From a virus (lineage: Duplodnaviria; Caudoviricetes): DNA of 64,000 nucleotides. Shown in pieces: positions 1-59,734 of the stretch; position 1 is the first letter of the stretch, and every line of letters begins with the position of its first letter. Position numbers and translations under genes: made by a program. The stretch spans positions 64,001 to 128,000 of the IMG/VR virus record IMGVR_UViG_2617270876_000003. The stretch is one strand, 5' to 3'. Below the pieces are notes generated by a model. That model searched no databases, had not been told where the DNA came from, and saw only the letters and a program-made list of their open reading frames with translations.

Positions 1-128
1 AACACTTGCTATCATTTCTTTGAAATCATTGCTTCCGATTATCTTATTAATCTCACTGTTGATTATTTTTGTATCCATAAACACTCCTCATTTCTTCGTA
101 AAATATGTATTTCTTATAGAATTATTTA

Positions 129-479
129 TTATTCCTGCAAGACAAGTTTGTTATTTTCCCAATGTCCCATTCTAGCCCTGTCGCTTTCGATCTCATTCAA
201 ACTATTCATAACCTTCAAAGCTTCCTCGTAATTTGAAGTTGCAGAAAACACAATTCCACTTCTCCCCTGGACCACATACACTTCTCCCTTCGTAGATTTT
301 ACATTCTCTCTATGCTTCTTAACTTCATTCATTAATCTATAAATTAATACATCATCATCATTTGGATTCATGGGAATTCGAATTACTGCTGTTCTATTTA
401 TAAGTCTGGTTAGTGCTGATCTGGCCATTGATAAATCAACTGGTTCTTTGCATTTCTTATCGAATTCATCTTGATTCAT
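129..479 (-). CDS. hypothetical phage protein
   Basis: 116-aa ORF, translationally coupled to the upstream ORF. Confidence 0.7.
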   Translation of the reverse strand: MNQDEFDKKCKEPVDLSMARSALTRLINRTAVIRIPMNPNDDDVLIYRLMNEVKKHRENVKSTKGEVYVVQGRSGIVFSATSNYEEALKVMNSLNEIESDRARMGHWENNKLVLQE

Positions 480-892
480 TATTTGGTCTCCTTATAAAAA
501 TAATGTTCTTCGCCATTTGTGTGAGTCCATCTGTATTTCCAACCTTCTTTGATCAACAATGGAATTACTTCCTCTAGACTCTTACTGGTGCTTCGAATAA
601 GAGGCTTTGCTTCATTGTTGTAATTGAACCTCCAAGTTCCTATGTCATCTAAATATACTGTGGCTTGTATTTCATTAGGACTATTCTGCTTTTCAATTTC
701 AGTTGCCACATCCAATATCTCTTTAGAAATCTTCCTCAACTTATCAGCAGTCCAAGTTGTTCCTCCACGACCACCAAAATTCAATCCACTATGCAATATG
801 TATGGATGATTCGATGAATCCTTATTACCATCATTCTTTTTGATTGTTCCTGATACAAAGTTTCCTTTTACGATAATCTCATTGCTGAACAT
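479..892 (-). CDS. hypothetical phage protein
   Basis: 137-aa ORF with overlapping stop/start coupling. Confidence 0.7.
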   Translation of the reverse strand: MFSNEIIVKGNFVSGTIKKNDGNKDSSNHPYILHSGLNFGGRGGTTWTADKLRKISKEILDVATEIEKQNSPNEIQATVYLDDIGTWRFNYNNEAKPLIRSTSKSLEEVIPLLIKEGWKYRWTHTNGEEHYFYKETK

Positions 893-1338
893 TAAATCAT
901 CTCCTTAATCTCTACAGAAATAAGCACATACTTTCCAATGTACTGAGCCAACATGTTCTCAATATTATGTCCGCCAATGATTAAGTTTTCGGTACTAAAG
1001 TAAGAAATCGTCAATTCCGAATATCCAATCCAATCTACCTGAACATCTATTTCTCCCATTGAACTTAAAATGTGATAGTTAATTGCCTCATCGGGTGTAA
1101 ATTCTTTTTCGTTCAAGTAAATTTGAACAAAAGCCAGAGGAGATGAAAAGTGTTTAAATATCCCATCGCCGCCAATAGCTTTTCGGTGATAATCGCCATC
1201 ATAATCTGGAAATTCAATATCTGTTAATTTGTTTGCTATGTATTCCCCTAAATTTATTCCGTTGATGATGATGCCGTGGCCTTCTTCTTTATCAATGATT
1301 CCACTTAATATTATTTTATTAATCATTTGCTCATCCAT
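892..1338 (-). CDS. hypothetical phage protein
   Basis: 148-aa ORF with an upstream RBS (GAGGGAG). Confidence 0.75.
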   Translation of the reverse strand: MDEQMINKIILSGIIDKEEGHGIIINGINLGEYIANKLTDIEFPDYDGDYHRKAIGGDGIFKHFSSPLAFVQIYLNEKEFTPDEAINYHILSSMGEIDVQVDWIGYSELTISYFSTENLIIGGHNIENMLAQYIGKYVLISVEIKEMI

Positions 1339-1565
1339 TTCAAAATCTCCCTCGTTCTTTTATTTACTTCATTTTACTCACTTGATTAACCACATGAAAC
1401 ACGCATTTCATTTAGAAATAATAGAATCGAATAATTCATTATACATTATCTTTAGGTGCGTATAACTTTCTTTTTTATTATTATATTTATTATATAAAAC
1501 TATATTCATTATTAAGGATAACACTAATACAAATATCAATATGTACCGAAGATATCTGTTCATAT

Positions 1566-1943
1566 TCAATCCTCCTTCCTATTCTTCAACAATGCTAAGT
1601 CATATCCAGATTCAATAAATTTTAATGTCTTCTTTCTGTTACAATCGTTCCCCAAATATGTATATATCTCGTGCATATCTTCTAAAGTAAAGTCTGTTCC
1701 CAAATATTCATTTATAATTGCTCTAATTCGTTTTTGCCAATACTCACTTACACCCTTACATGCGGGTCTTGATAACCAAGCCAACACTTTCCGTTTAATA
1801 TCGATGTCTGTCTCAACGTCTTCTAGAAGGAAGTAGATATTATTTTTAGGTTCAACGATCAATTCAAAATTTGAATTAATGAAGACATTTGGCGAATGGT
1901 TCTGTACAATTTTCATAAACTTTTGGATTTCAATTAGGTTCAC
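1566..1943 (-). CDS. conserved hypothetical Firmicutes phage protein
   Basis: 125 aa. The WLSR...YLGTDF...IYTYLGN..NR...FIESGYD pattern is one I recall from Bacillota phage hypotheticals. Confidence 0.75.
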   Translation of the reverse strand: MNLIEIQKFMKIVQNHSPNVFINSNFELIVEPKNNIYFLLEDVETDIDIKRKVLAWLSRPACKGVSEYWQKRIRAIINEYLGTDFTLEDMHEIYTYLGNDCNRKKTLKFIESGYDLALLKNRKED

Positions 1944-2131
1944 TTCAGCCCTCCTCCACGTAGAACATTAGTTAACTTTTTTATTCCTTCGTCAAAATAT
2001 TTTCTTGATTCTTTAAATTTAGTAAATGTAACTGGTTCATATCCTTGTGATCTTGCATGATTACAATAGTGACCATACTTTTTGAACATGTAACGGCGTT
2101 CATCTTCAATCATTTCTCGGTATGCGATCAT
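1940..2131 (-). CDS. hypothetical phage protein
   Basis: 63-aa ORF coupled to its neighbours. Confidence 0.65.
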   Translation of the reverse strand: MIAYREMIEDERRYMFKKYGHYCNHARSQGYEPVTFTKFKESRKYFDEGIKKLTNVLRGGGLK

Positions 2132-2358
2132 CCTTTTAGTTCCTCCAATGCATCTTCAAGATTATCTGTCCAACCCCACGTTCCCCCTTGAAGCAATGTT
2201 TCTCCTGTATTTTCATCACTCAAATAAATTTCAGAATACTCTTCTCCTTCTTCATTTGTGTAATTTAACCACCAAATGTCTACATATTTTAAATCTTTGT
2301 TGTTTCTTAACTCTGCTTGAATTTCTTTTGGTAGTTCATCGATCAATACGAATGTCAT
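2128..2358 (-). CDS. hypothetical acidic phage protein
   Basis: 76-aa ORF. Confidence 0.7.
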   Translation of the reverse strand: MTFVLIDELPKEIQAELRNNKDLKYVDIWWLNYTNEEGEEYSEIYLSDENTGETLLQGGTWGWTDNLEDALEELKG

Positions 2359-2388
2359 CTATTCACCCACATTTGTTTTATTTTTACT

Positions 2389-2565
2389 TTATTTATGCTG
2401 CATAAACATTGCCATGAACGAAAATAGTATGATGCTCGCAAAAAATGCTACTGTGACACTAATCATTCCATCTACAAAGCCGATGCTAAAGAGAAACGAA
2501 AAAAGTGATGATAGCACAAGAAATATTAAACAGAAAACCATATCACCTTTATTGATCTTCTTCAT
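2389..2565 (-). CDS. small membrane protein (probable start MKKINKG)
   Basis: Two hydrophobic segments. The RBS (AAGGGAG) follows junction site 2583, so the start is later than in the ORF track. Confidence 0.6.
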   Translation of the reverse strand: MKKINKGDMVFCLIFLVLSSLFSFLFSIGFVDGMISVTVAFFASIILFSFMAMFMQHK

Positions 2566-2687: not shown

Positions 2688-2691
2688 CTCT

Positions 2692-4236
2692 TTAAATATG
2701 TTGCATGATGGTTTCACTTACAAGGCTCAAAAAACTTTCGCTCTCAATTATTTCTCCTTCAATTCGAGCCCCCATAACATTAATTTCAATTAAAACCTTA
2801 TCCAAATCTTTTAGTTCAACAGCGAAAGGCTCTAATAAATTAGCTGGCTTTTGATACCACGATGACAACTTGTTCTTCATCATATACCATGATCCATAAA
2901 GCTCACCCTCACCTCTTACTAATATTAAATTAAATCCTCTACCATTCACAACTTCTATATAGCCCCAAGCAACGATAAGTCGATCTTTTAGTTTTGGTCG
3001 CCGTACCACTTTTCTCTTTGTCTCAAAAAAACGATCTTCCTCTATCTTTTCAAAATTCTTGTCATACAAAATTTCAAATTTTAGTGTTCCTCTTTCTCCA
3101 GAAGGAAATCTAATATCAATATTGATTCTGTCTTGTTCAAGGCTTCTTATATCTCCAAGATTAATTTGTCCTTTTGTGTATTTCGTATTAAACTCATCAA
3201 TAAATTCTCTAAGCGGAGAATATATTTCTTGTTGGAATTGGTAGTTAATTTCTTTAATGTATTCTAAATGTTCTTTTCGCTTTCTTTCTGCTTCGAGTTC
3301 GAGTGTTTTAAACGAGTCATCCTTACTCACTCTAATGTTCACCAAATTATCTATTAAACTAGAGTTAGAGGTGGGAGGTATATCATCAATTTGCATGGTT
3401 GCCTCTACTTCATTCCAGTTCTTATATCTTCGGGCCACATTTTTTTCCAACATAGTAGTAATCATCTGAATCATTCCATTTGGGATGGAGTCATTGATTT
3501 GTTTTATTGGCTTGATATTTTGATAGAAATGCGCTTGTTGCCAGCTATGCATATCATCGATTGCAACATCATATGGATGTTGCAATGTAGCCAATTCATA
3601 GAACACAATTCCCATAGAGTAAATATCATTCTGTATGGTATTTGTCTCTTGTCTCCACCTTTCTGGTGCAGTATATTTTATTGAACCATCTGCTTTAAAT
3701 GTAAGTTGTCGCGTACCTTCATTAGCGTTTTTAGAAATGCCAAAATCAGCTATTTTTAAAATTCCATCTTTAATAAGTATATTCTCTAGTTTTATATCTC
3801 TATGTACTAAATGCTCATCCTCATTTATTGCTTTCATACCGTTTATTAATTGTGAATAAAGACCCTTTAACTCTGCCACATCAAAAAACTCGCCTTTTTG
3901 TTTTTGCCTTGTAACTGCATCTAATAATGTACCTTGATTGGCAAACTCCATGATTAAATATGGTGGAAGTCCTTTGTAGGTCTCTCCATCGTGTACATAA
4001 AAATATTTTAAAACATTAGTGTGATTAACTCTAAGTGCTGCCTGACATTCATTAAAAAAGGCATCATATGAGTGGGCCGAAGGGAATCCTGTAGGAAGTG
4101 TTTTTAGTGCGGATATGGAATCATCGACCGTATTTCTTAAACGGTACACAAACCCAAATCCTCCTCTTCCTATCATTTCTAAAACCTCGTAGGCTGTCTG
4201 GGCATGGTCAAATGCAATTGTTCCAGGTGTTATCAT
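2692..4236 (-). CDS. Hanks-type serine/threonine protein kinase
   Basis: IGRGGFGFVY glycine loop, ALK, HRDIKLEN catalytic loop, DFG, YTAPE and DIYSMG, followed by a C-terminal domain of unknown function. Confidence 0.95.
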   Translation of the reverse strand: MITPGTIAFDHAQTAYEVLEMIGRGGFGFVYRLRNTVDDSISALKTLPTGFPSAHSYDAFFNECQAALRVNHTNVLKYFYVHDGETYKGLPPYLIMEFANQGTLLDAVTRQKQKGEFFDVAELKGLYSQLINGMKAINEDEHLVHRDIKLENILIKDGILKIADFGISKNANEGTRQLTFKADGSIKYTAPERWRQETNTIQNDIYSMGIVFYELATLQHPYDVAIDDMHSWQQAHFYQNIKPIKQINDSIPNGMIQMITTMLEKNVARRYKNWNEVEATMQIDDIPPTSNSSLIDNLVNIRVSKDDSFKTLELEAERKRKEHLEYIKEINYQFQQEIYSPLREFIDEFNTKYTKGQINLGDIRSLEQDRINIDIRFPSGERGTLKFEILYDKNFEKIEEDRFFETKRKVVRRPKLKDRLIVAWGYIEVVNGRGFNLILVRGEGELYGSWYMMKNKLSSWYQKPANLLEPFAVELKDLDKVLIEINVMGARIEGEIIESESFLSLVSETIMQHI

Positions 4237-4338
4237 TAGAAATCCTCCTTTGTCGATTATGTTCTAATTATACAATATTTGAAAGCAATGCATCATCAAA
4301 GGATTTTGAATGAAATAGACCTTTCAACGTCTTTTTTC

Positions 4339-4488: not shown

Positions 4489-4556
4489 TTATCTCTTCTC
4501 CTTTTCTTAATGAATGAACTCTTTTACTAATCTACAATATTATTGTTGACTATTAG

Positions 4557-5955: not shown

Positions 5956-6020
5956 TATTTTATTACTCCTTTATGTATATTTATTAATTAATTTTATGAT
6001 GAAACTTATGTTTTATCGGA

Positions 6021-6945: not shown

Positions 6946-6972
6946 CTAACTCCTCCTTTTTGGTGATGAAAT

Positions 6973-7461
6973 TTAGATTTTGTTTGCTCTCTCATAAACC
7001 GCGCAATATCCAAGCACAAAAATCTTAAAATTAGTGTACAATTCTTCAATTGAATTTGCCGAATTCATAATTGACGGCGTTCCACAAAACATAGGGAACT
7101 GAAATTCTTTTGAATATCCATTCTCATCCATGAAAGTTGTAAATGCATTCAAAAGATCCATGAGATAGGCAGATTCTCCATTTTGATTTTTAAACATATA
7201 GTGAGTTTCAATTCCAAGCATGTAGAGCTTACTTTTTCTATCATATGTAATGTCAATATCATTCATTGTGTAGATACTTGCACTCTTACCCGTTAAATCG
7301 TCCCATGATTGAAGACCCCATACATGCTTCAGAGAACCAACATTAAATTCATTATCTTCGTAATCTGGATATAGTTTCTTACACTTTTTTACCTCAAAAT
7401 AATGTTGTATATTCCAAAACTTATCCTCAAAATACCATTTAATTCTGTTTATAAATTTCAT
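6973..7461 (-). CDS. hypothetical protein
   Basis: 162 aa with RBS, bounded by sites 6966 and 7475. Confidence 0.75.
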   Translation of the reverse strand: MKFINRIKWYFEDKFWNIQHYFEVKKCKKLYPDYEDNEFNVGSLKHVWGLQSWDDLTGKSASIYTMNDIDITYDRKSKLYMLGIETHYMFKNQNGESAYLMDLLNAFTTFMDENGYSKEFQFPMFCGTPSIMNSANSIEELYTNFKIFVLGYCAVYERANKI

Positions 7462-7494
7462 TATTCATCTCCTTATGAAAGTTATATTTCATCA

Positions 7495-8424: not shown

Positions 8425-8460
8425 ATATCTATCTCCTCATATTTTGATTAAATCACGATT

Positions 8461-9169
8461 TTATGACCCAAAATGCTCCAACTGGTTATTCTCCAGTATT
8501 TCAATCTCACGCTCACTAAACCCAACGTCATTGAGTCTCAGGAGCATCTTACTGACCTCTTTATTACTTACTGTCATTCCTTCTTTCAACAAATCGTGGG
8601 AGCCTTACAATGGTTCCTACGATGTCCCTGGCCCTGCCCTCGTTGTAATAGATCTTATTCCCTCTTACGAATTTCCAATCGCTCAAGCAAACAACTTTTC
8701 CATTCTTCCAATACGTCATATTGTGCTTGAAGTCAAATTGATTGATCACCTCTTCCGGCTTTCCAATCCATTGAGTAATGATCTGGTATCTCCCAAGTGA
8801 GATTGCATTTTGAGTAATAGTCATATTGATGTCTTTGTACAATCCACCGCTTCGTAAATCGCCTTTGTAGGTTGTTTGGTTCAAGAAATACTCCCTAAGT
8901 CGTTCACCCAAATAATCCGACTCTACAAAAAAATCATAATCCTTCGGTTCCTTACCATGATAAAGACTGTAAATGCAGCCACCAGAGATGTATGACTTAT
9001 CAAAGAATTCTTTTCGCAATCCTTCTGGTAGCAACTTAATTAGGTCATCTTTGACATATAGAAGCTCATTATTGATCTTATTAATCTTCTCATTATGTAT
9101 TTGTTCTGGTGTTTTATATGCATTCTTAAAGATTCCCATCTTCAATAACAATTGTTTAATTCGTTTCAT
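8461..9169 (-). pseudogene. nucleotidyltransferase-like phage protein with a +1 frameshift near 8580
   Basis: YISGGCIYSL...PKDYDFF (GG...DxD) and FDF motifs. Removing one A gives ...RFVERGMTVSNKEV...EHFGS*, which ends at a stop inside site 8447. Confidence 0.65.
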
Positions 9170-9903: not shown

Positions 9904-9945
9904 ATGTATTAATCATCCCTTCTGTTTAATGATGAAAGTTTCATT

Positions 9946-10602: not shown

Positions 10603-10791
10603 GCGTTTCCTCCATTTATTTTTAAGTGAAATGCTGATTTTATTTACTCTTCGACAAGCATTTTAATTTCCCATTTACGCCCATCTTTGTCGGTTATGGT
10701 TGCTACGGCAGTATTTTCAATCAAATGTGTGCCAGTCATCTGTGCCTTCTTGCCAAAGAACTTTGTAAGTTGATTATAAAAATAGATTGAA

Positions 10792-48714: not shown

Positions 48715-48800
48715 TTAAATTCCTCCCGGTATATGTATGGTTTAATTTTACTACATTCTACTAGACAAGTCTGTAAAATCACTCTTTTACTTAGAAATGC

Positions 48801-49043
48801 TTACATCGCTCCATCTAGTTTCAGAAGCCTCACAACTTTATTTACAACAGATTTCGGAATAACATCTTTGTATTCGAGTACCAACATATTCTCCCTCACT
48901 TTATACCCTACACGTTTTCCCAATTCTGTTGTTTTTATATTCCATCTATCTAAAAACAGAATGTCAACAAGCCACTTTTCATCGACTACAATTGTAAAAA
49001 TGGGATCTTCTAAATGCGCACCTCTTTTTGAGCTGAATGGCAT
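48801..49043 (-). CDS. hypothetical protein
   Basis: 80 aa with RBS. Confidence 0.65.
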   Translation of the reverse strand: MPFSSKRGAHLEDPIFTIVVDEKWLVDILFLDRWNIKTTELGKRVGYKVRENMLVLEYKDVIPKSVVNKVVRLLKLDGAM

Positions 49044-49449: not shown

Positions 49450-49813
49450 CGTTATTCCTCCAAACATGTTATTTGAATCTTAGTATAACATGAAGCTATA
49501 AGAGCTTATAAAATGAGTATTTCTTTTTGTTATCTAACCACCATCAAAGATCCTTTTCCTGCTTCGAATTTATTTTTAAGATATTCACCGTACATCTTTA
49601 CATAATCAAGCTTTTCAAATTCATACATATTTGCACATGAGAACGAATTGTTGAATTCATATTTGAATTCTTCAAAAGACAATCCCGATTCAATTTCATT
49701 CAACGACTCTTGGATTCTTTTGTTCATATTTTTCATTTCAACCGCCTCCTATGTATTACCTTATGAACTAAGTATACATCAGAAGACGGTAATAGTCAAT
49801 ATATTATTTATTT

Positions 49814-50586: not shown

Positions 50587-51909
50587 TTAAACGTGTGTAA
50601 CCGTTACAAGATTAAATTTAACTAATTCATGTTTCAATATTTCTTCTATATCTTCAAACTTCCAATATGGAATTCGTAAAAGTGGTATATTATTATTATT
50701 ACAGAATTCATTTTTTATTTCGTCATTGTTTCGAGTGTTCATAAATGCCTTTTCACCAAAAATTGGTCTATAGTGCTGTTCTCCATCATATTCAATCAAC
50801 ATGTTAATATCTTGACTTCTCGAAAATACTACAAAATCAAAAGGTAATCTCCTTATATTTTTACATTCTTTAATTCTAAATTGTGTTTTGAAATTAATCT
50901 TCAAATCTGTTAATAATTTTGATATTTGCAATTCTCCTTTGGATTGTATGCATTTCGGGCATCTCTTACCGTTTTTAAAATTACCAAAAGAAGTATAGTA
51001 TACATGATTTTTGTCGCATTGAATTTTCAATTTCTGTGAATTGTTTTTATAGCTCTCTGATAGTAGTCGATAACCTGTATTTGATTTCCCTTCTATATAT
51101 TCTTTTACGTATTTATATTCTAACGGAACTGTACCCATACATATTTTACATCTATGTCCATTGAGAAAATGTATAAACTTCATCTCAACTATATGCCCTT
51201 TTGGGCATTGGACAATTACTTTTTTTGCACTTGTTTCATACGTAGACATTAAGATGTATCCTGCTTTGTTTATTATTAACTCTGCTTCTTCTTGACTTCT
51301 CCTGAGATTATCACTAGCCGTTGCCTTTGAGCATTTGGGACAGTGAGGCCCGTTAAGAATAGTTGACGGAGATGCTTTCCATTCATAACCACATATTTTA
51401 TGTTTGGTTAAAATTGGTGTTTTGCGATTAATATATGTTTCTAAGATTTCATATTCAGTTCCCTTGTTTAAATTTTCGACTTCTTTTAGATAGGAATTAT
51501 GGGTTTTCTTGGGGGTACTAAAACAATATGAACACCTATGTCCATTTAAAAAATTGTTTGGCTTTACTTTATAAATATTTCCGCAATTAACATGTTTCAT
51601 TAAAATGTGTTTATTCGATAACTCATAATCACTTTCTAAAACATATTCATTTCCCACCAAATCATAAATTTCTTTAACAAATTGAGCATGTTCCTTCCTT
51701 GTTTTTTCTTGCAACTTAAATTTTGTACAATTATTACATCGTTGTTTATTTTGGTCTCTGAAATGATTAAAGGTTGTTATAAATATATTGCCGCACTTAC
51801 ACTTAATAGTCAGTTTTTCACGATTATTACTATATTCAGTATTTATCAATACACAGGATTGTTCGTTAATGTATTTACTTACCTCTTCGTAAGTCAATTT
51901 TTTTGTCAT
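50587..51909 (-). CDS. zinc-ribbon-repeat protein with a C-terminal PD-(D/E)XK/Vsr-like nuclease (homing-endonuclease-like)
   Basis: About five C..GH/C..C repeats, then SKGE, LPFDF, IEYDGEQH and KN.FC..NNI.LLRIPYW. Confidence 0.85.
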   Translation of the reverse strand: MTKKLTYEEVSKYINEQSCVLINTEYSNNREKLTIKCKCGNIFITTFNHFRDQNKQRCNNCTKFKLQEKTRKEHAQFVKEIYDLVGNEYVLESDYELSNKHILMKHVNCGNIYKVKPNNFLNGHRCSYCFSTPKKTHNSYLKEVENLNKGTEYEILETYINRKTPILTKHKICGYEWKASPSTILNGPHCPKCSKATASDNLRRSQEEAELIINKAGYILMSTYETSAKKVIVQCPKGHIVEMKFIHFLNGHRCKICMGTVPLEYKYVKEYIEGKSNTGYRLLSESYKNNSQKLKIQCDKNHVYYTSFGNFKNGKRCPKCIQSKGELQISKLLTDLKINFKTQFRIKECKNIRRLPFDFVVFSRSQDINMLIEYDGEQHYRPIFGEKAFMNTRNNDEIKNEFCNNNNIPLLRIPYWKFEDIEEILKHELVKFNLVTVTHV

Positions 51910-51919
51910 AGTTTCTCCT

Positions 51920-54900
51920 TCAAGAAATATTTTGCTCTCCCCATGTTAAGCGTACAGATCCATTTTCATCATATTCTTTTGTAATAATACTACTAAATAT
52001 ATCTAAACTTATCCCAAATTCTCCGAATATCTCAGCATCCTCCTTATATTCACACTGTTTAACAAATTCATTGATCCGTTGTTTGGACATCAACAAAGCC
52101 AGAATATTCTGCTCCAAGGTATTTAAATAAGTTACAAAGTGGATCATTGTTTTATTCTTGCTGTTAAGTCTCGTAAAACGGCCTATATACTGCATCATAT
52201 TCGCAATGTTATATTGTAGACCCTCGCATATTACAACGTCACAAGAAGGGATATTGACGCTCTCAGAGAGACTCATCTGTGTAGAAATGAGCAATCCGTT
52301 TTCTGTTGCTTCAAATTCTTTTATAATCTCTTGACGCTTTTTAAATGGAGTTTCGCCTAATATCAAAAATATAGGTCGCTCTTTAAACTCAGTTCTTAAT
52401 TTATTGTAATAATAAGTTGCCGAATCAATAAATGTTGTTCCGATTGCTACTTTATCGCTATTTGCACTGTTAATAATTTTTACTATTTTTTTATATTTAT
52501 TCGGCTCCACCTTACCATCATATTCCTTCAATTTATGCGGAATAGAAACAGCTTTTTGTAGCAATTGTATCTGTTGAATAATTCTCAACATTGCATCGCG
52601 TCTATAGTTGCCAGACGTTCCATAATAGCCCCTAACAATGGAGTGGAACTCTTCCATAATTAATCTATATACTTCTTGTTCATTGTCATTCTGGCTTATT
52701 CTATGCGTCTTAAACTCGACCACATCTTTAGTCATGACATCAAACATGCTACGGACAATAATAGTTTTTTCAATAAGTTTAACAAGTTTGCTCGAATTCA
52801 TAATGTCTTGATTTCCTTTTTGAATTCCAAACACAGAAGTTTTTTTAGGAGAGAAACAAGAAGAAAAAACGCTTTGTTTGTATGCAGGAAAAGGATGTTT
52901 ATAATATTTATTATGTTCCTCTTTCCACTCTCCTGTTTTTTTATCCTCGGATAAAACAGTTTCACATTCACAAATACAATTTATGCTGCTACCGTAAAGG
53001 ATCATGAATTGTGAATACAATTCGTTAGCTGTATTTTTAGTTGGCGTTCCCGACATTAATAATTTATATGGTACTTTTTGAAATACATTGATGGTCGCCT
53101 TTGTTGTTTTTGTGTTTGGGTATATGCAGCGGTGACTCTCATCTAAAATGAAAGCAATTTTTCTGCCCTGCATCTTTATATATTTTTTGATATTTTTTTG
53201 ATATTTAACTAACATATTAAAAGATATTAAAACTATATCGTCAGGCTGAATATTGTGAATGTCTGATAATGTTTCTATTTTTTTATATGGAAGGTCATAG
53301 GATTCTAATCTATCCGTCCATGTCATTTTAATTGAAATACTGGAAGATACAATAAACGTATTTCTTATGCTATTATTTTCAATGAAATACTTCATCCACG
53401 TTATTCCTGCTTCTGTCTTTCCCAGTCCAACATTCCAAGCAAGCAAAGCCCGATCCTTTTGTAATATCTTTTGTATATCTTCTTTCTGAAAATTTTTAAG
53501 TTTTATAAATTGTTTTGAATTTTTATTATATAGCGTGAAGGCTTCAAGCCAGTCTGATATATATTCATTCTGTCCTATCTCCTTAAATGGCTTGCTTTGC
53601 TGAGTATGTGCTTTAATTTTTTTATTGAGTAGTTTTCTATATGTTTGATCTTCAAACGGGTATTCACCTTTTAAAATCATGTCATTAAAACTAACCTCTT
53701 TAACTCCAGTAAACTTCGATAAGTATATTTTATTTTTGTGTGAGTATCCTTTTAGTTTTAGACTGTTAGATTTCTTGACCAATTTAATACAATCATGCTC
53801 TACTCTGTGTTGATTTTTTAGTATTTTCTTCAACTTTGAAATAATCATATTCGGCGTTAACTTAGCATTAGACCATTCTTCCGCAGACATTCCCTCCGGT
53901 TTTACCTGAATTTTATATCTATGTAACATTTCACTACATTTTGCATAATGAATGCACGTTTTTTGATTTCTTTTAATGTCGAACAAAAGTTTATTAACTT
54001 TGAACTGAAAATCCTGCTCTTCTTTGGTATTACTATTTGCTGCTGCAATCTCATAAAATAGTTTCGCTTTTAATGTTTCCTTTTGTTGCATAACTGGTGC
54101 TATGTATTGAGTATGATATTTATCGGCTATCTCAGCAGAAAACTCACTAATTAATATTCCTTTATTACTGTACGGAATATCTGTTAAATGCCCACTTTTG
54201 CGCTGAAAGAATAATATTTTAGTTTTAAAATTATTTACTCCAACGTTTTTAAATACATCGCTAGGTAAATTTAATTGTAATAAAAAGTTAAATTTATCAT
54301 TAATCATTTCTATATCTATCTTGTTTGAAAATTCATCGGCAAGAAAAGTGTCTGGAACAATGATGCAAAATAGAGAGGAGGGTTTTAAGAGTTCGGCAGA
54401 TTTTAAACAGTAGTACATCTGACTTGTTACTTTCTTATTATCCCATTTGAAGCCCTCTATATTATACGGAGGATTTCCACAAATTAAATCGAAACGGGTT
54501 AATGGTGTATATTCCCGAATATCGCCTAACGTTGCGTTAACTTTAGGATATAAAAATTTTTGAACTTTGAAAGATTTAATGTCAATCTCATTTGTATAAA
54601 CATTCTCATGACACGGCAACCAGTTTAAAAAAGCACCATGACCCGCTGTAAAGTCTCCAATTATGTCGTGAATGGACGGTTTGAGCATCAAAGATAGGAA
54701 ACGGGTTAATTCATAAGGTGTATAAAATTGTCCATTTTCTATTTCACGTTTTGCGGAAGAAAATTCATGGAAGTTGGCATAATCACTAAAAGATAGCCCA
54801 TGTAAACCACCATCTCCAGAATAACATAAAAACACATGATTTTTAGAGATTCCATGCTTTTCTGTCAGATTGTTATCGATCAAATAAAGCACTTTTTCAT

Positions 54901-54961
54901 TTATTTCCTTTCTTTTATTTTGAGGAATAATAACGTTATTTAATTCATACATAATTGTCAC
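51920..54961 (-). CDS. N6-adenine methyltransferase-SNF2 helicase fusion (DarB-like)
   Basis: GQFYTP, DFTAGHGAF and GNPPY, then W.VGLGKT, ILDESH, MSGTP..N, SESVNIP and Q.IGRFTR. Confidence 0.88.
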   Translation of the reverse strand: MTIMYELNNVIIPQNKRKEINEKVLYLIDNNLTEKHGISKNHVFLCYSGDGGLHGLSFSDYANFHEFSSAKREIENGQFYTPYELTRFLSLMLKPSIHDIIGDFTAGHGAFLNWLPCHENVYTNEIDIKSFKVQKFLYPKVNATLGDIREYTPLTRFDLICGNPPYNIEGFKWDNKKVTSQMYYCLKSAELLKPSSLFCIIVPDTFLADEFSNKIDIEMINDKFNFLLQLNLPSDVFKNVGVNNFKTKILFFQRKSGHLTDIPYSNKGILISEFSAEIADKYHTQYIAPVMQQKETLKAKLFYEIAAANSNTKEEQDFQFKVNKLLFDIKRNQKTCIHYAKCSEMLHRYKIQVKPEGMSAEEWSNAKLTPNMIISKLKKILKNQHRVEHDCIKLVKKSNSLKLKGYSHKNKIYLSKFTGVKEVSFNDMILKGEYPFEDQTYRKLLNKKIKAHTQQSKPFKEIGQNEYISDWLEAFTLYNKNSKQFIKLKNFQKEDIQKILQKDRALLAWNVGLGKTEAGITWMKYFIENNSIRNTFIVSSSISIKMTWTDRLESYDLPYKKIETLSDIHNIQPDDIVLISFNMLVKYQKNIKKYIKMQGRKIAFILDESHRCIYPNTKTTKATINVFQKVPYKLLMSGTPTKNTANELYSQFMILYGSSINCICECETVLSEDKKTGEWKEEHNKYYKHPFPAYKQSVFSSCFSPKKTSVFGIQKGNQDIMNSSKLVKLIEKTIIVRSMFDVMTKDVVEFKTHRISQNDNEQEVYRLIMEEFHSIVRGYYGTSGNYRRDAMLRIIQQIQLLQKAVSIPHKLKEYDGKVEPNKYKKIVKIINSANSDKVAIGTTFIDSATYYYNKLRTEFKERPIFLILGETPFKKRQEIIKEFEATENGLLISTQMSLSESVNIPSCDVVICEGLQYNIANMMQYIGRFTRLNSKNKTMIHFVTYLNTLEQNILALLMSKQRINEFVKQCEYKEDAEIFGEFGISLDIFSSIITKEYDENGSVRLTWGEQNIS

Positions 54962-55842
54962 TCCTCATTTCCTTGATATCTAAACTCACCAAAATATTTA
55001 ATTTCTGCCTCTTTTCTTGTTGAAAAAGCATCTTCAAAATTATTGAATGTTCCTAAATGTATGTATTTTTTATTTATATGTATTCCAGCGATGTATTTAC
55101 CATTTTCATATTGTTTGATGCCTGAAATATTTAAACTTTCATTTTTCGGCGTTCTATTTCTTGTATTATCTGCCACAGTGCAGATTCTAATATTGGCCCT
55201 TCTATTATCACAAGGAGTATTATTTTTATGATCAACAATATCATTATTTTTTGCATTTAAAAGTAAACGGTGTAAAGATATTGTCCTAACATTTCCTAAT
55301 TCGTCAGTTTCTCTACTTCTCACATACCCGTTATCATCCATACACCAACTATATTTACTTATCAACTCAAAATCTTCTACATTAAAATAAAATTCCCATC
55401 CCTTAGAAGTCATTCCAACAAAGTAAGTATCACATTCAAAGAACTTATTTATTGATTCTTTATTTTTACATCCACAATGGGTTATTTGTCTACCATCTTT
55501 TCTTTTTAAGTCATTTCTAGGAACAATTTTATCTCCTCCGCAATCACATTGACATAACCATGTCGAAGTATGCCCACTCAATCCCACTCTTTGAACAACA
55601 ACCAAATTCCCAAATCGTTTCCCCGTTAAATCCTTCAACTTCTTCATGTTTCGATTGCATCCACAACTCTTTGATAAACCTCTGACGAGATAAGTTTCAG
55701 GTACAAGTTTTTTAGTTCTATGGCATTCAGTGCAGACGCACAACCATTGTTTTAAATTTGTTTTTTCTTTTTTGGGTCCTTGTTCTAATACAAACCATTT
55801 TCCAAACTTTTCACCAATTAAATCATCTATTTTTTTCTCCAC
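54958..55842 (-). CDS. HNH/AP2 homing endonuclease
   Basis: Two DL.G.KFG...WLC.C.CG...SCGC repeats, LHR...VDHKN....DNRR.N.R and HLGTF..FEDA...RKEAE.KYFGEF. Confidence 0.9.
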   Translation of the reverse strand: MEKKIDDLIGEKFGKWFVLEQGPKKEKTNLKQWLCVCTECHRTKKLVPETYLVRGLSKSCGCNRNMKKLKDLTGKRFGNLVVVQRVGLSGHTSTWLCQCDCGGDKIVPRNDLKRKDGRQITHCGCKNKESINKFFECDTYFVGMTSKGWEFYFNVEDFELISKYSWCMDDNGYVRSRETDELGNVRTISLHRLLLNAKNNDIVDHKNNTPCDNRRANIRICTVADNTRNRTPKNESLNISGIKQYENGKYIAGIHINKKYIHLGTFNNFEDAFSTRKEAEIKYFGEFRYQGNEE

Positions 55843-55925
55843 AAATTCCCTCCTTTTTTTTGCTGTTCTATCAATTATATTATTTCAGCCAGCAAAAAGT
55901 GCTGGCTGTTATACGGTCTTTTAGT

Positions 55926-58127
55926 CTATGCAGATTGTTGATTATATCCGCAATATTCATTTGCAAACTTGGATGCAACTTGATTGGATAAAAATTCAAT
56001 TTCCATTTTACCGTTCTTTAAAAATTTAATTGTTTTTACCTTGCTTAACGTCTGCACTTCGTATTTATCATAATTATCTTTACTTCTTTCGTTGTTATAT
56101 CCGAAATATTTATTTGACAACTCTTCTTTAACATTTGTGTTGCCGTCTTCAAAATGTGATAGTGCCATTAAAATGGACTCATGCTTTCCGGTTAACCTAT
56201 ACTCTTTCCAGATTGAATCATGATAGGCAAAATGTCCGTCTAAGATCAATTTATTGTTACGTATAGTTATTTTGTCATTACTATAAAAAATGTCTTTTGC
56301 TTTGCTTTTTATCTCCTGTTCTGCTTTTTCCGTAAAGTTGAACCCGTCAAGTTGAATAAAAATCTCATCAATAATGTTATTATAGGTGATATCCTCCCCA
56401 TATTTATTTTTAACTTTATCCTCATCAATAGTAATGTTGTATTTTCTTTCAAAATAAGAGCAAACATACATAATAAATGCATTTTTTATATCACTAATAG
56501 CTTTTTCATAATCATGCTTGCTCATGCTGTAATAAAACGCCGTATTTTGAGCGTGAAAGTAATTCTCTGTTTTTTTACCGAATTTTTGCCCATGCTCTTT
56601 ATCTAAAATCGCAATTATCTGAAGTTGTGCATTAAATGTTTTATATGCCGCAATAGTCTTTTTATAAATTTCCTCTTGTTCATTGCAGAATTCCAGATCC
56701 TCGTTAGAAATTTTTTGCTCTGCTGTTATAGTGATGTTGTCAAACTTACTGAAAATATCATCATATGTATTAACCATTCCCTCAACCTCTTTCCCTTCTG
56801 TTTCTGTTGTTTCAGTTTGACTAAAGTTATAATGTATTACGTTGTCTTGCGCCTCTGTATTGCCTCCTGTTGCGGTTTGTTCTGGTTCTACCTCCTCTAT
56901 GCTGTCTACACTGTTATTGCCATTAATAAGACTCTGAGCGAATGCCAAACGTTCTTCTGTTTGTTTCGCCCACCATTTTCCTCCATAAGAAGACCAACGG
57001 AAACCATTTTCTTTTAATGATGTAATAATATCGCTAGAAGGTTTTCCGTTAAACTTTAATTCAATGCCGTTTTTCTCTTCGTTGATTGTAAGTGTAACCT
57101 CATTGCTGTTGTCGCTACCCCTATGTGCGCTTTCTGTTTCTTGGCTTGCTGTTGCTTCGGGTGTCTCAATCTGTGGAGCATTTGAAACAGTTTGTTTACG
57201 TGCTGTTTTCTTGAATACAGTCTTTTCTACATATTGCGTAACCTCTATAAACTCGATTACAGCAATGTGGCCTTTACTCAACAATTCATTAATACGGGTA
57301 ACAGATAAACTCCACATCTTATCGAAACTTTTAGATGGCTTATTGTTTTTGCCAAGCTTAGAGAACACACCGTTATTGATATATGTATATTTATTTCCTT
57401 TGCTTTTTCCGTGTGTATATCCAACTTTCATTACAATAGTGAAACCTTCTTTAATGTCTGCATCTGTTACGGCTGTGACGGCTTTTTCTACGGTTTGAAT
57501 GGTTTTAACGGGAACCTTGATAACTTCGGCCTGTAATGCGTCCGAATCGCTCAAAACCTTTTCTACGCGGCTAACAAATGCTGTGATTTTTTCCTCTTTC
57601 TGTTCTGCTGCTGTTTTCTCTTTATTTTCCCAATCATATGTATTAGTAGAAAATACTCCTTTACCTTTCGCAATAATCTGACCATCCTTTTCAATATGCC
57701 AGCTAGTACCTTTTGGATTAGCATGTGAAAAAGTTGGGTAAACCTCTTTAACCGTATACTCTGGTTCAACTCCTGCTTTCTCTTTTTCTTTTTCAATAAG
57801 TACAGCACAAGAAGCTTTTTCATTTTCAGTGCTTGCTGCATCGTTCATCATTGCGGTTAGTTTAGTGATACGTTCATTTGATACGGTTCTCTTGCTATTA
57901 TAAATATATTCTCTTTCTTCTTTACCAGAAAGAGAAAGATTATAATTACAAATGTCAATTAACAATACATAACCATTTTTAGTTGCTATGCCAGACCAAT
58001 CAGCAGGGTGATAATAATCAGTCATAGAGTCTGATTGATCAGGAGAATAACCAAATGCTTTCCAGCCACTTTCAACCAATTTATGCATGATTCTAACCTT
58101 TGCTTCTCTTTTATCACCGTAGTACAT
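55926..58127 (-). CDS. large polyvalent-type protein with a DUF4942-like C-terminus
   Basis: SDSMTDYY N-terminus, NEEKNGIELKF..KP......LK.NGFRWS....WWAKQ domain and KTIKFLKNGKMEIEF C-terminus, upstream of the MTase-helicase. Confidence 0.7.
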   Translation of the reverse strand: MYYGDKREAKVRIMHKLVESGWKAFGYSPDQSDSMTDYYHPADWSGIATKNGYVLLIDICNYNLSLSGKEEREYIYNSKRTVSNERITKLTAMMNDAASTENEKASCAVLIEKEKEKAGVEPEYTVKEVYPTFSHANPKGTSWHIEKDGQIIAKGKGVFSTNTYDWENKEKTAAEQKEEKITAFVSRVEKVLSDSDALQAEVIKVPVKTIQTVEKAVTAVTDADIKEGFTIVMKVGYTHGKSKGNKYTYINNGVFSKLGKNNKPSKSFDKMWSLSVTRINELLSKGHIAVIEFIEVTQYVEKTVFKKTARKQTVSNAPQIETPEATASQETESAHRGSDNSNEVTLTINEEKNGIELKFNGKPSSDIITSLKENGFRWSSYGGKWWAKQTEERLAFAQSLINGNNSVDSIEEVEPEQTATGGNTEAQDNVIHYNFSQTETTETEGKEVEGMVNTYDDIFSKFDNITITAEQKISNEDLEFCNEQEEIYKKTIAAYKTFNAQLQIIAILDKEHGQKFGKKTENYFHAQNTAFYYSMSKHDYEKAISDIKNAFIMYVCSYFERKYNITIDEDKVKNKYGEDITYNNIIDEIFIQLDGFNFTEKAEQEIKSKAKDIFYSNDKITIRNNKLILDGHFAYHDSIWKEYRLTGKHESILMALSHFEDGNTNVKEELSNKYFGYNNERSKDNYDKYEVQTLSKVKTIKFLKNGKMEIEFLSNQVASKFANEYCGYNQQSA

Positions 58128-58183: not shown

Positions 58184-58228
58184 ATTATAGCATGGTTTAT
58201 ATTGTATGTCTATTTATTTTTACTTTAT
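58184..58228 (-). promoter_or_regulatory. promoter with ATAAAGTAAAAATA box
   Basis: ATAAAGTAAAAATAAA-TAGACA-17 bp-TATAAT with extended TG. Confidence 0.8.
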
Positions 58229-58289
58229 AAACAAAAAAATAAAGCCTTTCGGCTTTGTGTTTTCGCATGAAATCTTGTTTTTATGAGAT

Positions 58290-58646
58290 CTAATAGCAAA
58301 CACTTCTAATATTTAATTGCTTAAAAATATGCATTATCTTATCTACATCAAAACCATTTTCTTCATATTTGACAATCTGTTTTAGCGTTTTTTCTTTTTG
58401 TTTGTTTATGTGTTCAAACATACTAATTTCCGCTTCACTCAATTTATCCCATGCAACACTATTGTTTTCATTACGTGGAGCATAAGCCCAAAAATTATTT
58501 AATTCCTTTTCAAATTGTTCGTATTTTTTATGTATTTTAATTATTTTTACTTCTTCTTTATTAAATCCATCGTATCTCACTTTCTTATCAACTCTTGATG
58601 AAACCTTCTTATATCTTAAATTCTGCTTCTCTTTATTTGCACCCAT
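58290..58646 (-). CDS. hypothetical protein
   Basis: 118 aa, bounded by sites 58267 and 58671. Confidence 0.7.
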   Translation of the reverse strand: MGANKEKQNLRYKKVSSRVDKKVRYDGFNKEEVKIIKIHKKYEQFEKELNNFWAYAPRNENNSVAWDKLSEAEISMFEHINKQKEKTLKQIVKYEENGFDVDKIMHIFKQLNIRSVCY

Positions 58647-58692
58647 AGAAATAAAGCCTCCTTAATTAAGATGAAATATGGTTTTTATCATA

Positions 58693-58959
58693 TTAAATGA
58701 TTGGTTTAATCTTCAGCCAAAACTTACCGTTCAAGTAAATGTCTATGGTTCCATCTTCATTGAATTTGGTATCTTTGGCTTTAGGAATATCAAGCCATGA
58801 ATCATTTCCGTTAACTAGTGTTGTTATTGCATTGGTTTGAACCTTGTTAATTTCTCTTACTTGGCCTCCTGCCATTTCTGGTTTCATTGTGTTTTCAATG
58901 AACTGAATTTGCTTGCCTTTCTCTAACCATTTTTTAAATTGGGACATATTTTTAATCAT
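58693..58959 (-). CDS. hypothetical protein (probable start MIKNMSQ)
   Basis: REINKVQTNAI...SWLD.PKA motif with RBS AAAGGA. Confidence 0.7.
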   Translation of the reverse strand: MIKNMSQFKKWLEKGKQIQFIENTMKPEMAGGQVREINKVQTNAITTLVNGNDSWLDIPKAKDTKFNEDGTIDIYLNGKFWLKIKPII

Positions 58960-59001
58960 GTTAATCAATCCTTTTTGTGTATTTTTATTAATAAAGAACA
59001 A

Positions 59002-59256
59002 TTAAGGCAGCAAAGCTACACATTCTCCAGTTTGAATTGTATGAGCTTTTTGCAAAAATGCTAATGTGTAATCATAACAGCCATCTAGGGCTTCAGCGAT
59101 ACTCTCTTTACGCCATTGTATGTATGACTCTATATCATTTACTTTTACTTCTCCACTTACAACCTCATTAATACATCCCTGTGCATTATCCGCAAACCAT
59201 TCTCTTGCTTTTTGAATTGACTCTGCTGATAGTTCTACTCCTGTAAATCGTGCCAT
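59002..59256 (-). CDS. hypothetical protein (probable start MARFTG)
   Basis: The RBS GGAG follows site 59287. Confidence 0.7.
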   Translation of the reverse strand: MARFTGVELSAESIQKAREWFADNAQGCINEVVSGEVKVNDIESYIQWRKESIAEALDGCYDYTLAFLQKAHTIQTGECVALLP

Positions 59257-59321
59257 ATTATCAACTCCGATTAATATTTTCATCTTATAAAATCCGGTTT
59301 TTATCAAGCTCCTAAGAAAGA

Positions 59322-59651
59322 TTAAGCCGTAAAGCGTCTAACAACCACTTCGCAGTTAATTACTGAAACTTTCTTGTTCGTGTCGTTTTTATTCCATGCA
59401 TTTTCCTGTATATAGTTTTTGTTAATCAGCATGCTTCCAGTTGTTTTAATAGAATCCTCAACTTTCGCAATTGACATTGCATAGCTGACAACAGCATCTT
59501 TCAAAGTATCGTAACCATATTCCCAGGTTTGACCTTTTTCTTTAGAACACCATCCGTATTCTTCTTCTTTCCAAAACTCAACTTGATCGTTTTCCCACCT
59601 CTTTTTATTTTTAACCAGTTCAATATTAGATTTGCAATCAATATAACTCAT
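59322..59651 (-). CDS. hypothetical protein (probable start MSYIDC)
   Basis: The RBS AGGAG follows site 59684. Confidence 0.7.
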   Translation of the reverse strand: MSYIDCKSNIELVKNKKRWENDQVEFWKEEEYGWCSKEKGQTWEYGYDTLKDAVVSYAMSIAKVEDSIKTTGSMLINKNYIQENAWNKNDTNKKVSVINCEVVVRRFTA

Positions 59652-59734
59652 ATGTATCAACTCCTGTGATTGTATTAGTTTTGATAAAATTATCATTTGA
59701 TTGGATTGTCCAGAGGAGTCTCAAGACTCCTCTT

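Follow-up and report, generated by a model that had tools for sequence, protein, structure and literature searches.

Introduction

The neat exchange of unrelated genes at gene boundaries is a long-standing question of phage mosaicism. Most often it is answered by illegitimate recombination events that are rare and then sifted by selection, or by shared regulatory elements that serve homologous recombination. The question is raised by a stretch of 64,000 nt of phage DNA (IMG/VR record IMGVR_UViG_2617270876_000003, positions 64,001 to 128,000; this whole stretch is called the window here), in which junctions between small accessory genes are marked by an 18-bp dyad, RTRAAA-N6-TTTYAY, composed of two 6-bp arms and a 6-bp core. 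In the SPbeta-like phages, a family that includes SPbeta and phi3T of Bacillus subtilis, such sites are dense and coincide with mosaic boundaries, and their centers are conserved by position and unique within a genome. These three properties are the signature that is expected of a system built for exchange in register. We give about an even chance to the reading that the dyads serve as junction-specific recombination-address sites of SPbeta-like phages.

Results

Dyads at the gene junctions of the window

The initial annotation had noticed about 60 palindromic sites, and their excess over background holds against shuffled sequence. Exact copies of the motif occur 19 times in the window where 0.78 are expected, a 25-fold excess that none of 100 dinucleotide shuffles reaches. 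With at most one mismatch there are 61 sites, against 15.5 expected and a shuffle maximum of 22. Gene junctions or edges account for 47 of these 61, and the remaining 14 lie deep within open reading frames (ORFs) as drawn by crude gene calls. The ORF-internal matches are at about chance level, and five or more of them (2583, 6966, 36634, 47896, 48773) are probably real junction sites that were mis-scored by over-long ORF calls, because each sits just 5' of a ribosome-binding site (RBS). No core had been seen twice, and indeed the 47 junction cores are 47 different sequences, without any pair of reverse complements or any palindrome among them.

Nearly all genes of the window lie on the minus strand, and on that strand the order is upstream stop, site, RBS. 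The fixed polarity from stop over site and RBS to start that had been pointed out is real but nearly trivial, because the site is a dyad and the only room in junctions of 20-50 nt is between stop and RBS. In many cases the RBS follows 0-12 nt after the site, often directly abutting it, and the distance from site to start codon is variable, from 13 to more than 40 nt. A stop codon within the arm at offset +14 was confirmed at 12 of 12 proposed positions, each holding a TAA or TGA of a minus-strand gene in a site with 0-2 mismatches. For the proposed stops at +9, TAA is present in all four places, but two of the sites are weak (45683 with four mismatches, 28880 with two). To speak of sites at most junctions was somewhat generous: 75 of the 95 consecutive minus-strand junctions have a gap of at least 12 nt, and in these roomy junctions a site is present 38 times if one mismatch is allowed and 50 times if two are allowed. 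The conserved blocks had been described as free of junction sites. They contain 1-mismatch matches only, five of which are deep in ORFs (18933, 50676, 54280, 56283, 60909), but one, at 19749, lies at a gene edge. No tRNA genes were found in the window.

The sites are listed below without strand, followed by the genes on which the argument draws (G and L numbers are our labels for compared records and loci).

1394-1411, exact dyad, pattern match
2583-2600, exact dyad, 5' of an RBS; scored intragenic by the gene caller
5999-6016, exact dyad, pattern match
7475-7492, exact dyad, pattern match
9932-9949, exact dyad, arm holds the stop of the gene 9946-10602 (minus strand)
10626-10643, exact dyad, pattern match
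11332-11349, exact dyad, stop in arm
12284-12301, exact dyad, stop in arm
26237-26254, exact dyad, core TGCCAA kept in G050, where the downstream gene has 51% amino acid identity
29152-29169, exact dyad, stop in arm
32205-32222, exact dyad, core TTCGTC kept in G052 (flank 48% at the amino acid level)
32836-32853, exact dyad, left boundary of the cREC_REC cassette, which is 94% identical in G069
35625-35642, exact dyad, stop in core (+9)
38710-38727, exact dyad, pattern match
40939-40956, exact dyad, pattern match
48773-48790, exact dyad between ORFs 48346-48714 and 48801-49043, 5' of an RBS; scored intragenic
58267-58284, exact dyad, pattern match
58671-58688, exact dyad, homology to G052 (88%) begins at its first base; core kept
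59287-59304, exact dyad, pattern match
98-115, dyad with 1 mismatch, junction
4310-4327, 1-mismatch match at a gene edge, no RBS following; may be chance
4510-4527, dyad with 1 mismatch, precedes an RBS
6966-6983, dyad with 1 mismatch, precedes an RBS; scored intragenic by the gene caller
8447-8464, dyad with 1 mismatch, stop in arm; core kept in L070
11075-11092, dyad with 1 mismatch, stop in arm
14045-14062, dyad with 1 mismatch, precedes an RBS
16284-16301, dyad with 1 mismatch after the YorG-like gene; core TCTGTC invariant in G050, G052, G126 and L070-L073
19749-19766, 1-mismatch match at a gene edge in a conserved block; possibly chance
27725-27742, dyad with 1 mismatch, junction
33233-33250, dyad with 1 mismatch, right boundary of the cREC_REC cassette; core CTTGCA kept in G069, G001 and G050
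33537-33554, dyad with 1 mismatch, precedes an RBS
34145-34162, dyad with 1 mismatch, stop in arm; core TAGCCA kept in G050, where the gene has 25.5% amino acid identity
35005-35022, dyad with 1 mismatch, homology to G001 (84%) begins 2 nt inside; core kept
36006-36023, 1-mismatch match over the start of ORF 35634-36026; probably chance
36634-36651, dyad with 1 mismatch, stop in arm, 5' of an RBS; scored intragenic
37222-37239, dyad with 1 mismatch, stop in core (+9)
37530-37547, dyad with 1 mismatch, precedes an RBS
38975-38992, dyad with 1 mismatch, stop in arm
39406-39423, dyad with 1 mismatch, precedes an RBS
40336-40353, dyad with 1 mismatch, stop in arm
41593-41610, dyad with 1 mismatch, intergenic, away from any RBS
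41916-41933, dyad with 1 mismatch, stop in arm
42162-42179, dyad with 1 mismatch, precedes an RBS
42603-42620, dyad with 1 mismatch, junction
42795-42812, dyad with 1 mismatch, precedes an RBS
43005-43022, dyad with 1 mismatch, precedes an RBS
43444-43461, dyad with 1 mismatch, junction
45118-45135, dyad with 1 mismatch, intergenic
47663-47680, dyad with 1 mismatch, intergenic
47896-47913, dyad with 1 mismatch, precedes an RBS; scored intragenic by the gene caller
49508-49525, dyad with 1 mismatch, intergenic
59684-59701, dyad with 1 mismatch, junction
16318-17310, minus strand, YorG-like gene (AAA_24, Sak4-type), the anchor for fetching 80 related loci
22438-23442, minus strand, MrpR/YopR-family repressor-like gene with tyrosine-recombinase fold, 334 aa, both MrpR Pfam domains above cut-off; belongs to a yopPQR-type module
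23439-24764, minus strand, YopQ-like gene with a weak DndB match in the same yopPQR-type module; candidate partner
32854-33216, minus strand, one-gene cassette encoding 120 aa with a cREC_REC domain, bounded by the sites 32836 and 33233

The dyad in SPbeta-like phages

The window lies inside an AT-rich island of about 196 kb (about 4,232,000-4,429,000) in a host genome of 5.87 Mb and 50.2% G+C, and this island carries 57 of the 78 exact sites of the whole genome. Because its ORFs match Bacillus phage SPBc2 in tblastn (terminase 66%, portal 55% and YorG 65% identity, besides YonO-, YonN-, YorF-, YorK-, YorL-, YopP-, YopQ-, YopR- and SprA-like ORFs), a large serine recombinase is located at its left end and MrpR Pfam domains are present, the island is, judged from its sequence, an unusually large SPbeta-like prophage. 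The homology with SPBc2 covers structural, replication and lysogeny genes, which together with the end-located large serine integrase places it in this family. A second, smaller SPbeta-like element with 8 exact dyads lies outside the window (G000:C1, about 3,255,000-3,310,000). It has YonO-like, YopP-like (44% identical) and tail genes, some of them up to 88% identical to the big prophage.

The system had been proposed for this phage. From the counts that follow, the dyad is a trait of the wide SPbeta-like family including the model phage SPbeta itself. In SPBc2 the exact sites number 15 where 1.4 are expected (at most 4 in any of 30 first-order Markov simulations); they are mostly at junctions and have the consensus ATAAAA-N6-TTTTAW. 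Three other genomes of the host's genus harbor relatives of 140-172 kb with 54, 29 and 39 exact sites, which lie in the early half of the prophage, with none in the host flanks; sites are concentrated in the early half of each prophage and rare in the late structural half. The 80 IMG/VR loci fetched via the YorG-like protein contain 193 exact sites in 1.42 Mb, and the records of five whole relatives have 37, 53, 56, 77 and 42 sites, against 0-3 for a reversed-pattern control. When all 5+N+5 palindromes were counted de novo, TAAAA-N6-TTTTA was on top in two phage groups (A+B and C). The clade termed group D (YorG 58% identical) is nearly motif-free, with 3, 5, 3, 9 and 2 sites against 1, 1, 3, 0 and 3 for the control; its composition is similar to that of the motif-bearing groups, yet the dyad is not the top palindrome there. 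Group D comprises the IMG/VR loci L133-L149 (records G132-G136), phages of 155-182 kb without the dyad and without the whole yopP-yopQ-yopR module; each of them has 3-5 other tyrosine recombinases, including a YomM-like one.

Arm variants are lineage-specific: G138 (the L072 record) has mostly RTAAAA...TTTTAY and G140 (the L077 record) mostly ATRAAA...TTTYAT, a pattern to be expected from co-evolution of the arms with a phage protein. Stem-loops and two 'palindrome' features are annotated in the SPBc2 record, but the dyads have no annotation there. We also found no description of them in the full-text literature searched and in passages of SPbeta review and comparative papers, a search outside of which the SPbeta genome paper of 1999 lies.

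Cores are kept between genomes and dispersed within them

Orthologous junctions were defined as pairs of sites in different phages with a homologous neighbor gene on at least one side. Their mean core identity is 0.61 where the flanking proteins are less than 80% identical, 0.54 below 60% and 0.49 below 45%, compared to 0.30 for unrelated site pairs. Identity at the variable arm positions 3 and 16 is that of random pairs (0.37 and 0.47 vs 0.43 and 0.41), and flanks reach 0.31-0.42. The distribution of core identities is bimodal, with at least five of six bases kept in 33 of 87 orthologous pairs (flanking proteins below 80%) but in only 710 of 63,922 unrelated pairs. With a core identity of 0.96 against 0.59 at the R/Y arm positions and 0.43 in the 12-nt flanks of these 33 pairs, core conservation reflects selection rather than recent transfer. 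It was seen in 18 of 41 independent junction families and holds whether the homologous neighbor is the upstream or the downstream gene; conserved-core junctions retain at least one homologous neighbor. Locus L074 is the same phage as G050 (junctions 100% identical) and was left out of this count and of the endpoint count for the window's family given below.

Within a genome the cores are all distinct (96 of 96, 78 of 78, 61 of 61 and 70 of 70). Summed over five phages, there are no identical core pairs where 7.7 are expected, and 61 pairs that agree in at least five of six bases where 119.9 are expected; in both comparisons none of 1000 column permutations is as low. Identical pairs in reverse complement are likewise absent (8.15 expected). 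A pairing element that permits recombination predicts both the conservation of the core and its dispersion within the genome, whereas the spacer of an operator predicts neither.

Homology breakpoints and cassettes

Breakpoints were mapped in a Bacillus set of 51 loci (megablast; loci below 10 kb left out) and in the window's own family. Alignments on the opposite strand were ignored, as were high-scoring segment pairs below 300 bp for the Bacillus endpoints, 250 bp for replacement and indel events and 150 bp for the window's family. In the Bacillus set, 161 of 773 unique endpoints fall at -6 to +17 from the outer edge of a site, where 7.6 are expected (maximum 15 in 200 randomizations), and in the window's family 34 of 164 against 2.25 (maximum 8 in 500). 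The proposal that relatives replace, gain and lose genes at the sites is supported. Among non-coding endpoints of the Bacillus set, 118 of 460 (25.7%) are at site edges, although only 4.0% of such bases are located there. The endpoints are most frequent between the first base of a site and 6 nt outside it, and hardly any lie in the core, as expected if both partners carry the same site; 104 of 162 site endpoints face a same-core site (at least five of six bases) in the other genome. A crossover inside the 6-bp core would be indistinguishable by alignment, shared sites being identical. The closer IMG/VR relatives L070-L073 have only 69-80% DNA identity, which leaves few sharp breakpoints.

Among SPBc2, phi3T and Goe13 many blocks of 93-100% identity begin or end at a dyad. 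At the site 83687 of SPBc2 the arrangement is L1-site-R1 in SPBc2, L2-site-R1 in phi3T and L1-site-R2 in Goe13. At another SPBc2 dyad, 116414-116431 (L003 16414-16431), Goe12, SPbetaL2 and Goe13 lose the homology to SPBc2 exactly at the last base, 116431. The one non-homologous joint reported in laboratory phage hybrids, after yosA, was examined and set aside, Hyb2 and Hyb3 carrying this region unbroken.

In the Bacillus set there are 282 unique replacement events, and in 52 of them both ends are within 24 nt of a site (at most two mismatches), against 1.6% expected. Pure indels number 22, with both ends at a site in 4 and one end in 15 (at least one end in 19). One locus holds alternative inserts between the cores TCGTCA and TAGTTA, and two empty alleles, each with a single fused site. 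In the first type, arm and core of the first site are joined to the right flank of the second; in the second type, left flank and arm of the first site are joined to the core of the second. Because of these alternative inserts and fused-site empty alleles, cassettes are taken to be gained and lost there, with a crossover in the arm or at its inner end. The proposed exchange of one- or few-gene cassettes is supported in that the same pair of sites encloses alternative cassettes, and a single fused site remains in empty alleles.

An example in the window is the cassette 32836-33250, which has 94% identity to G069 up to both sites, where the homology stops. Its gene, 32854-33216, encodes a cREC_REC (cyclic-phosphate processing receiver) protein and is the most widely shared cassette. 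With 76-94% nucleotide identity it is found in G069, G001, G014, G050 and G072 in otherwise unrelated contexts, and shorter matches occur in G055 and G095. The gene may be a counter-defense gene. At the left joint of this cassette in G069 (C1, about 4773650-4773692) two dyads are only 2 nt apart; the second has two mismatches, and the outer one has the core TGCCAA, as at window position 26237 and in G050. Adjacent double sites as a common insertion scar were rejected, since only 0 of 559 and 1 of 522 sites are of this kind.

Of the integron- or pdif-like shuffling proposed initially, exchange, gain and loss at the sites stand, but free pairing of any two sites does not seem to be at work, as the cores are junction-specific, conserved and different within a genome. 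This fits exchange mainly between same-core sites in different genomes. Conserved cores at orthologous junctions had been named as a sign against cassette exchange; conserved they are, but taken with the breakpoints they argue instead for the core as the pairing element.

The arms and their possible reader

Across 71 gene-oriented sites no association links arm position 3 with 16 or 1 with 18 (Fisher p = 0.80 and 0.67), and at 3/16 the combination A.C occurs 15 times and G.U 14 times. The mean minimum free energy (MFE) of RNA folding is -1.1 kcal/mol against -0.75 for shuffles, and -3 is reached by 13% of the sites. No Rfam family matches the dyad, and a complement of the core is present within 60 nt for only 1 of 47 cores (1.35 expected). 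The RNA hairpin reading was rejected on the lack of arm covariation, the negligible folding energy and the absence of an Rfam match. Arm frequencies are symmetric, and information falls to about 0.2 bit or less beyond the 6-bp arms. Because the arms do not covary and an RNA hairpin is negligible, the dyad is likely a double-stranded DNA site that is read as two half-sites. Independent half-sites at fixed spacing are what a two-fold symmetric protein would read on duplex DNA.

Several candidate identities were dismissed. An extended asymmetric flank, nAnGA, after the site follows the gene strand in its orientation and is explained by the RBS. Judged from the dif consensus, from which the arms differ, the dyad is not the host dif. 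Neither is it SPBRE, which, taken from SPBc2 upstream regions, is different in sequence and longer. In the passages describing chromatin affinity purification sequencing (ChAP-seq) of MrpR in SPbeta, there are ten peaks, all at SPBRE promoters (PMC10516654), and the excerpted account of SroF/MrpR has it reading a 24-bp box as a monomer (bioRxiv 10.1101/2025.11.27.690993). As far as these excerpts go, peaks at SPBRE only, the 24-bp box and the different sequence exclude the known family repressor MrpR/SroF as dyad reader, and the MrpR/YopR-like protein of the window (22438-23442) is probably not the binder.

A candidate recombinase

A search for an intact tyrosine recombinase elsewhere in the phage had been suggested as a check. 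Besides the serine integrase the prophage encodes two ORFs with the complete R, K, HxxR, H, Y set, a YopP-like one at G000 4367213-4368280 and a late YomM-like one, both located 7 to 32 kb beyond the window and not at the head of an array. The YopP-like ORF has a Phage_integrase and a SAM-like N-terminal domain, and XerD and XerA are nearest to it among solved structures. The catalytic residues are intact in YopP of phi3T, and the MrpR-like protein is without the His of HxxR. A YopP-like gene is present in five of five motif-rich records and absent in five of five motif-poor ones. In passages of the SPbeta-phage literature yopP is a core gene of unknown role. We infer that the cognate enzyme may be the Xer-like, YopP-type tyrosine recombinase, which at this stage is a candidate.

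Further genes of the window

Amid the accessory genes, a 514-aa ORF (2692-4236, minus strand) has a full eukaryotic-type Ser/Thr kinase domain (Pkinase, E 3e-44). Within the cassette array, a 272-aa ORF (34159-34977, minus strand) has a GmrSD_N domain (type IV restriction, N-terminal). The site-free conserved block 50587-58127 (minus strand) contains four ORFs: a 440-aa DUF4379/CapR/DUF2726 protein, a 1013-aa SNF2/ResIII helicase with an N6_Mtase-like N-terminus, a 294-aa ORF and a 733-aa ORF without Pfam match. The block looks like a defense or anti-defense module. Megablast of it against the phage collection gave no match, and tblastn of the 733-aa ORF gave weak partial matches only.

Discussion

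On the reading to which we give an even chance, the arms RTRAAA and TTTYAY would be generic inverted half-sites, each read independently by a phage-encoded protein, and the 6-bp core would be the address of the junction. Recombination between same-core sites of two related genomes, the partner being a co-infecting phage, a resident prophage or a remnant island, would exchange everything to one side, and strand exchange would need matching cores. Two such events would swap a cassette in register even if the neighboring genes share no homology. With all cores in a genome different, the sites would not recombine mutually, so that neither deletion nor inversion would result. Less often, two different sites would cross over at their arms, with gain or loss of a cassette, and leave one fused site. 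A more specific proposal is tentative and would sooner be wrong than right: SPbeta-like phages might run a natural cassette-exchange grid of 50-100 Xer-type sites with common arms and incompatible position-specific cores, in which YopP swaps accessory modules, counter-defense genes among them, in register with any relative of matching address, free of homology and without risk of self-deletion.

Known site-specific systems share several of these features. Dif-type sites have 11-bp arms with a consensus of their own and are served by the host XerC/XerD. Like Xer/dif sites and the pdif modules of Acinetobacter, the dyads have inverted arms around a 6-bp center (a fixed N6), modules are bounded by sites, and the phage recombinase is nearest to XerD/XerA. 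Unlike in dif and pdif, the arms are only 6 bp long with a different sequence, information outside of them being at most about 0.2 bit, and there are 50-100 sites per genome, each with a different center. Heterospecific lox or FRT sites in recombinase-mediated cassette exchange are man-made sets of two or three sites, in which the spacer decides on pairing and a cassette between different spacers is swapped without deletion. The dyads would resemble them in identical arms and spacer-determined pairing, but would form a natural grid of dozens of sites. A rule of spacer identity has indirect support from the same-core partners at 104 of 162 site endpoints and from cores that are conserved between genomes and over-dispersed within them, the fused sites derived from different cores being the counter-example. 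A recombinase with R-K-HxxR-H/W-Y, as in lox/FRT-type systems, is encoded by the YopP-like and the late YomM-like ORFs, each a candidate only for the cognate role.

Several observations weigh against recombination addresses. Over the whole prophage a site is present in just 65 of 258 same-strand junctions, and about three quarters of the non-coding endpoints in the Bacillus set are away from sites. Endpoints and junction pairs come from related phages and are hence not independent events; the gene calls are simple, orthology assignment and de-duplication rough. The four orthologous junctions found between SPBc2 and the window's family have cores with 1, 2, 0 and 3 of 6 bases identical, which are not conserved. 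The indel alleles are crossovers between sites of different core, so that core identity is not obligatory, and microhomology of the arms could explain them. According to the passages of a study on lab-evolved phi3Ts-SPbeta hybrids (bioRxiv 10.1101/2020.05.06.055103), all but one of the 16 recombination sites (15) map to ordinary homology, and therefore general recombination dominates in the hybrids described there. Selection for 'compatibility' is second-order. The conserved arms of 6 bp are short against the 11 bp of Xer-type sites. With respect to the enzyme, YopP of SPBc2 has HSFK in place of HxxR, and the small site-bearing islands G001, G069 and G072 gave no YopP-like match. The five motif-poor records, which form one clade, lack MrpR-like and YopQ-like genes as well, so the phyletic profile is confounded; as the YopP-, YopQ- and MrpR-like genes are missing together, it points to the module and not to one gene.

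It is unlikely, though less so than the other alternatives, that the dyads are operators or roadblocks at which a dimeric DNA-binding regulator of phage or host silences or times the co-oriented early operons. Breakpoints would then be passive, the sites being the only short identity between unrelated genes. A dyad with independent half-sites is what such a regulator would bind, and the sites are intergenic, concentrated in the early half and rare in the late structural half. The motif co-occurs with the lysogeny module yopPQR, its arm preference is lineage-specific, and the family already employs a recombinase-fold repressor according to excerpts of two studies (PMC10516654; bioRxiv 10.1101/2025.11.27.690993). 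SPBRE, as these excerpts present it, belongs to the same phage family and has a recombinase-fold binder, and the window encodes an MrpR-family protein; SPBRE is, however, a longer and different sequence with about ten promoter copies, read by a monomer, and SPBc2 carries both SPBRE and dyad. All ten ChAP-seq peaks of MrpR at SPBRE promoters and the 24-bp monomer box of SroF/MrpR speak, within those excerpts, against the known repressor as binder. The stoperators of cluster A mycobacteriophages likewise are tens of short sites in short intergenic spaces across a prophage. As excerpted from PMC9283540, they are asymmetric 13-14-bp copies of one consensus without variable part, at which a monomeric immunity repressor stops elongation. 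The dyads differ in their symmetric arm frequencies, a flank asymmetry that follows the RBS, and, in the excerpts on MrpR/SroF, a family repressor that reads a different 24-bp box. The spacer of an operator should drift, yet at orthologous junctions no part of the site is as conserved as the core, and the R/Y arm positions are randomized. Mutual avoidance of cores within a genome is not predicted by an operator either, and fused sites in empty alleles as well as alternative cassettes between the same cores would be left unexplained.

Improbable is an integron- or pdif-like system in which any two sites recombine, so that cassettes leave as circles, insert and change their order freely within and between phages. 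Integron attC sites are 57-141 bp long with R''-L''...L'-R' boxes, and as folded single strands they are recombined by IntI at an attI platform with the promoter Pc, any attC pairing with attI. Integron cassettes and the dyad arrays have in common that co-oriented, mostly promoterless ORFs are separated by imperfect palindromes with a cassette-specific center, that the stop often lies inside the site, and that a tyrosine recombinase (here intact ones) is encoded. In addition, dyads separate co-oriented small ORFs, the single fused site of the indel alleles derives from two sites of different core, and the cREC_REC cassette occurs in different contexts, with two adjacent sites at its joint in G069. 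Unlike in integrons, the dyads are 18 bp long, show no covariation and have negligible hairpin energy, and the cores are bound to a position and kept different within a genome. No attI/Pc platform was seen. Gene order is conserved and collinear among the large prophages, with conserved-core junctions keeping at least one homologous neighbor. Indels with both ends at sites are just 4 of 22, against 52 such replacements, and adjacent double sites are as rare as given above.

Equally improbable is that no dedicated protein is involved, and that the make-up of the junctions (stop codons TAA/TGA with A/T runs) gives rise to the dyad incidentally, or that the dyad has an unrelated use, general or microhomology recombination merely exploiting it. 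Read in either orientation, each arm offers a stop codon through its TRA, and 12 upstream genes terminate within an arm; the fused sites are an outcome to be expected of slippage between 6-7-bp repeats, and the excerpted laboratory hybrids recombine in ordinary homology. This is opposed by the fixed 6-bp spacing with its 25-fold excess over dinucleotide shuffles, by the top rank among de novo palindromes in two phage groups but not in group D of similar composition, by lineage-specific arm variants, by a stop codon overlap in only 16 of about 50 sites, and by the conservation and over-dispersion of the cores. The PeSLs of T4-type phages are comparable as repeated short intergenic elements in accessory (hyperplastic) regions at which relatives differ by indels and replacements. 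In the excerpts of their description they are functional sigma-70-type promoters with terminator stem-loops that recombine through their own sequence similarity (PMC2839356). The dyad, unlike PeSLs, has 18 bp, no promoter (an RBS often follows within 0-12 nt) and no stable hairpin (MFE -1.1 kcal/mol), but generic arms and a junction-specific, conserved and over-dispersed core.

A small RNA stem-loop 5' of the RBS for mRNA processing, stability or translation, one of the alternatives named initially, would suit sites that lie between stop and RBS, often abutting the latter, and on the transcribed strand of co-oriented genes, but it is very improbable given arms that do not covary (A.C as common as G.U), negligible folding, rare core complements, no Rfam match, a variable distance to the start codon and DNA homology breakpoints at site edges, which it does not predict.

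Should the dyads be operators instead, they would amount to an unreported regulon of about 100 sites in a model phage family. The exchange of virus genes in register at addressed sites looks like an undescribed way of gene exchange, within a literature that was covered in part and does not include the SPbeta genome paper of 1999. If true, it would explain the turnover of accessory and counter-defense genes in these phages and would give a function to the conserved but unexplained YopP recombinase. It might also supply a set of orthogonal recombination sites. For the modular theory of phage evolution, the YopP-run grid tentatively proposed above would be an enzymatic version of the 'linker' idea.

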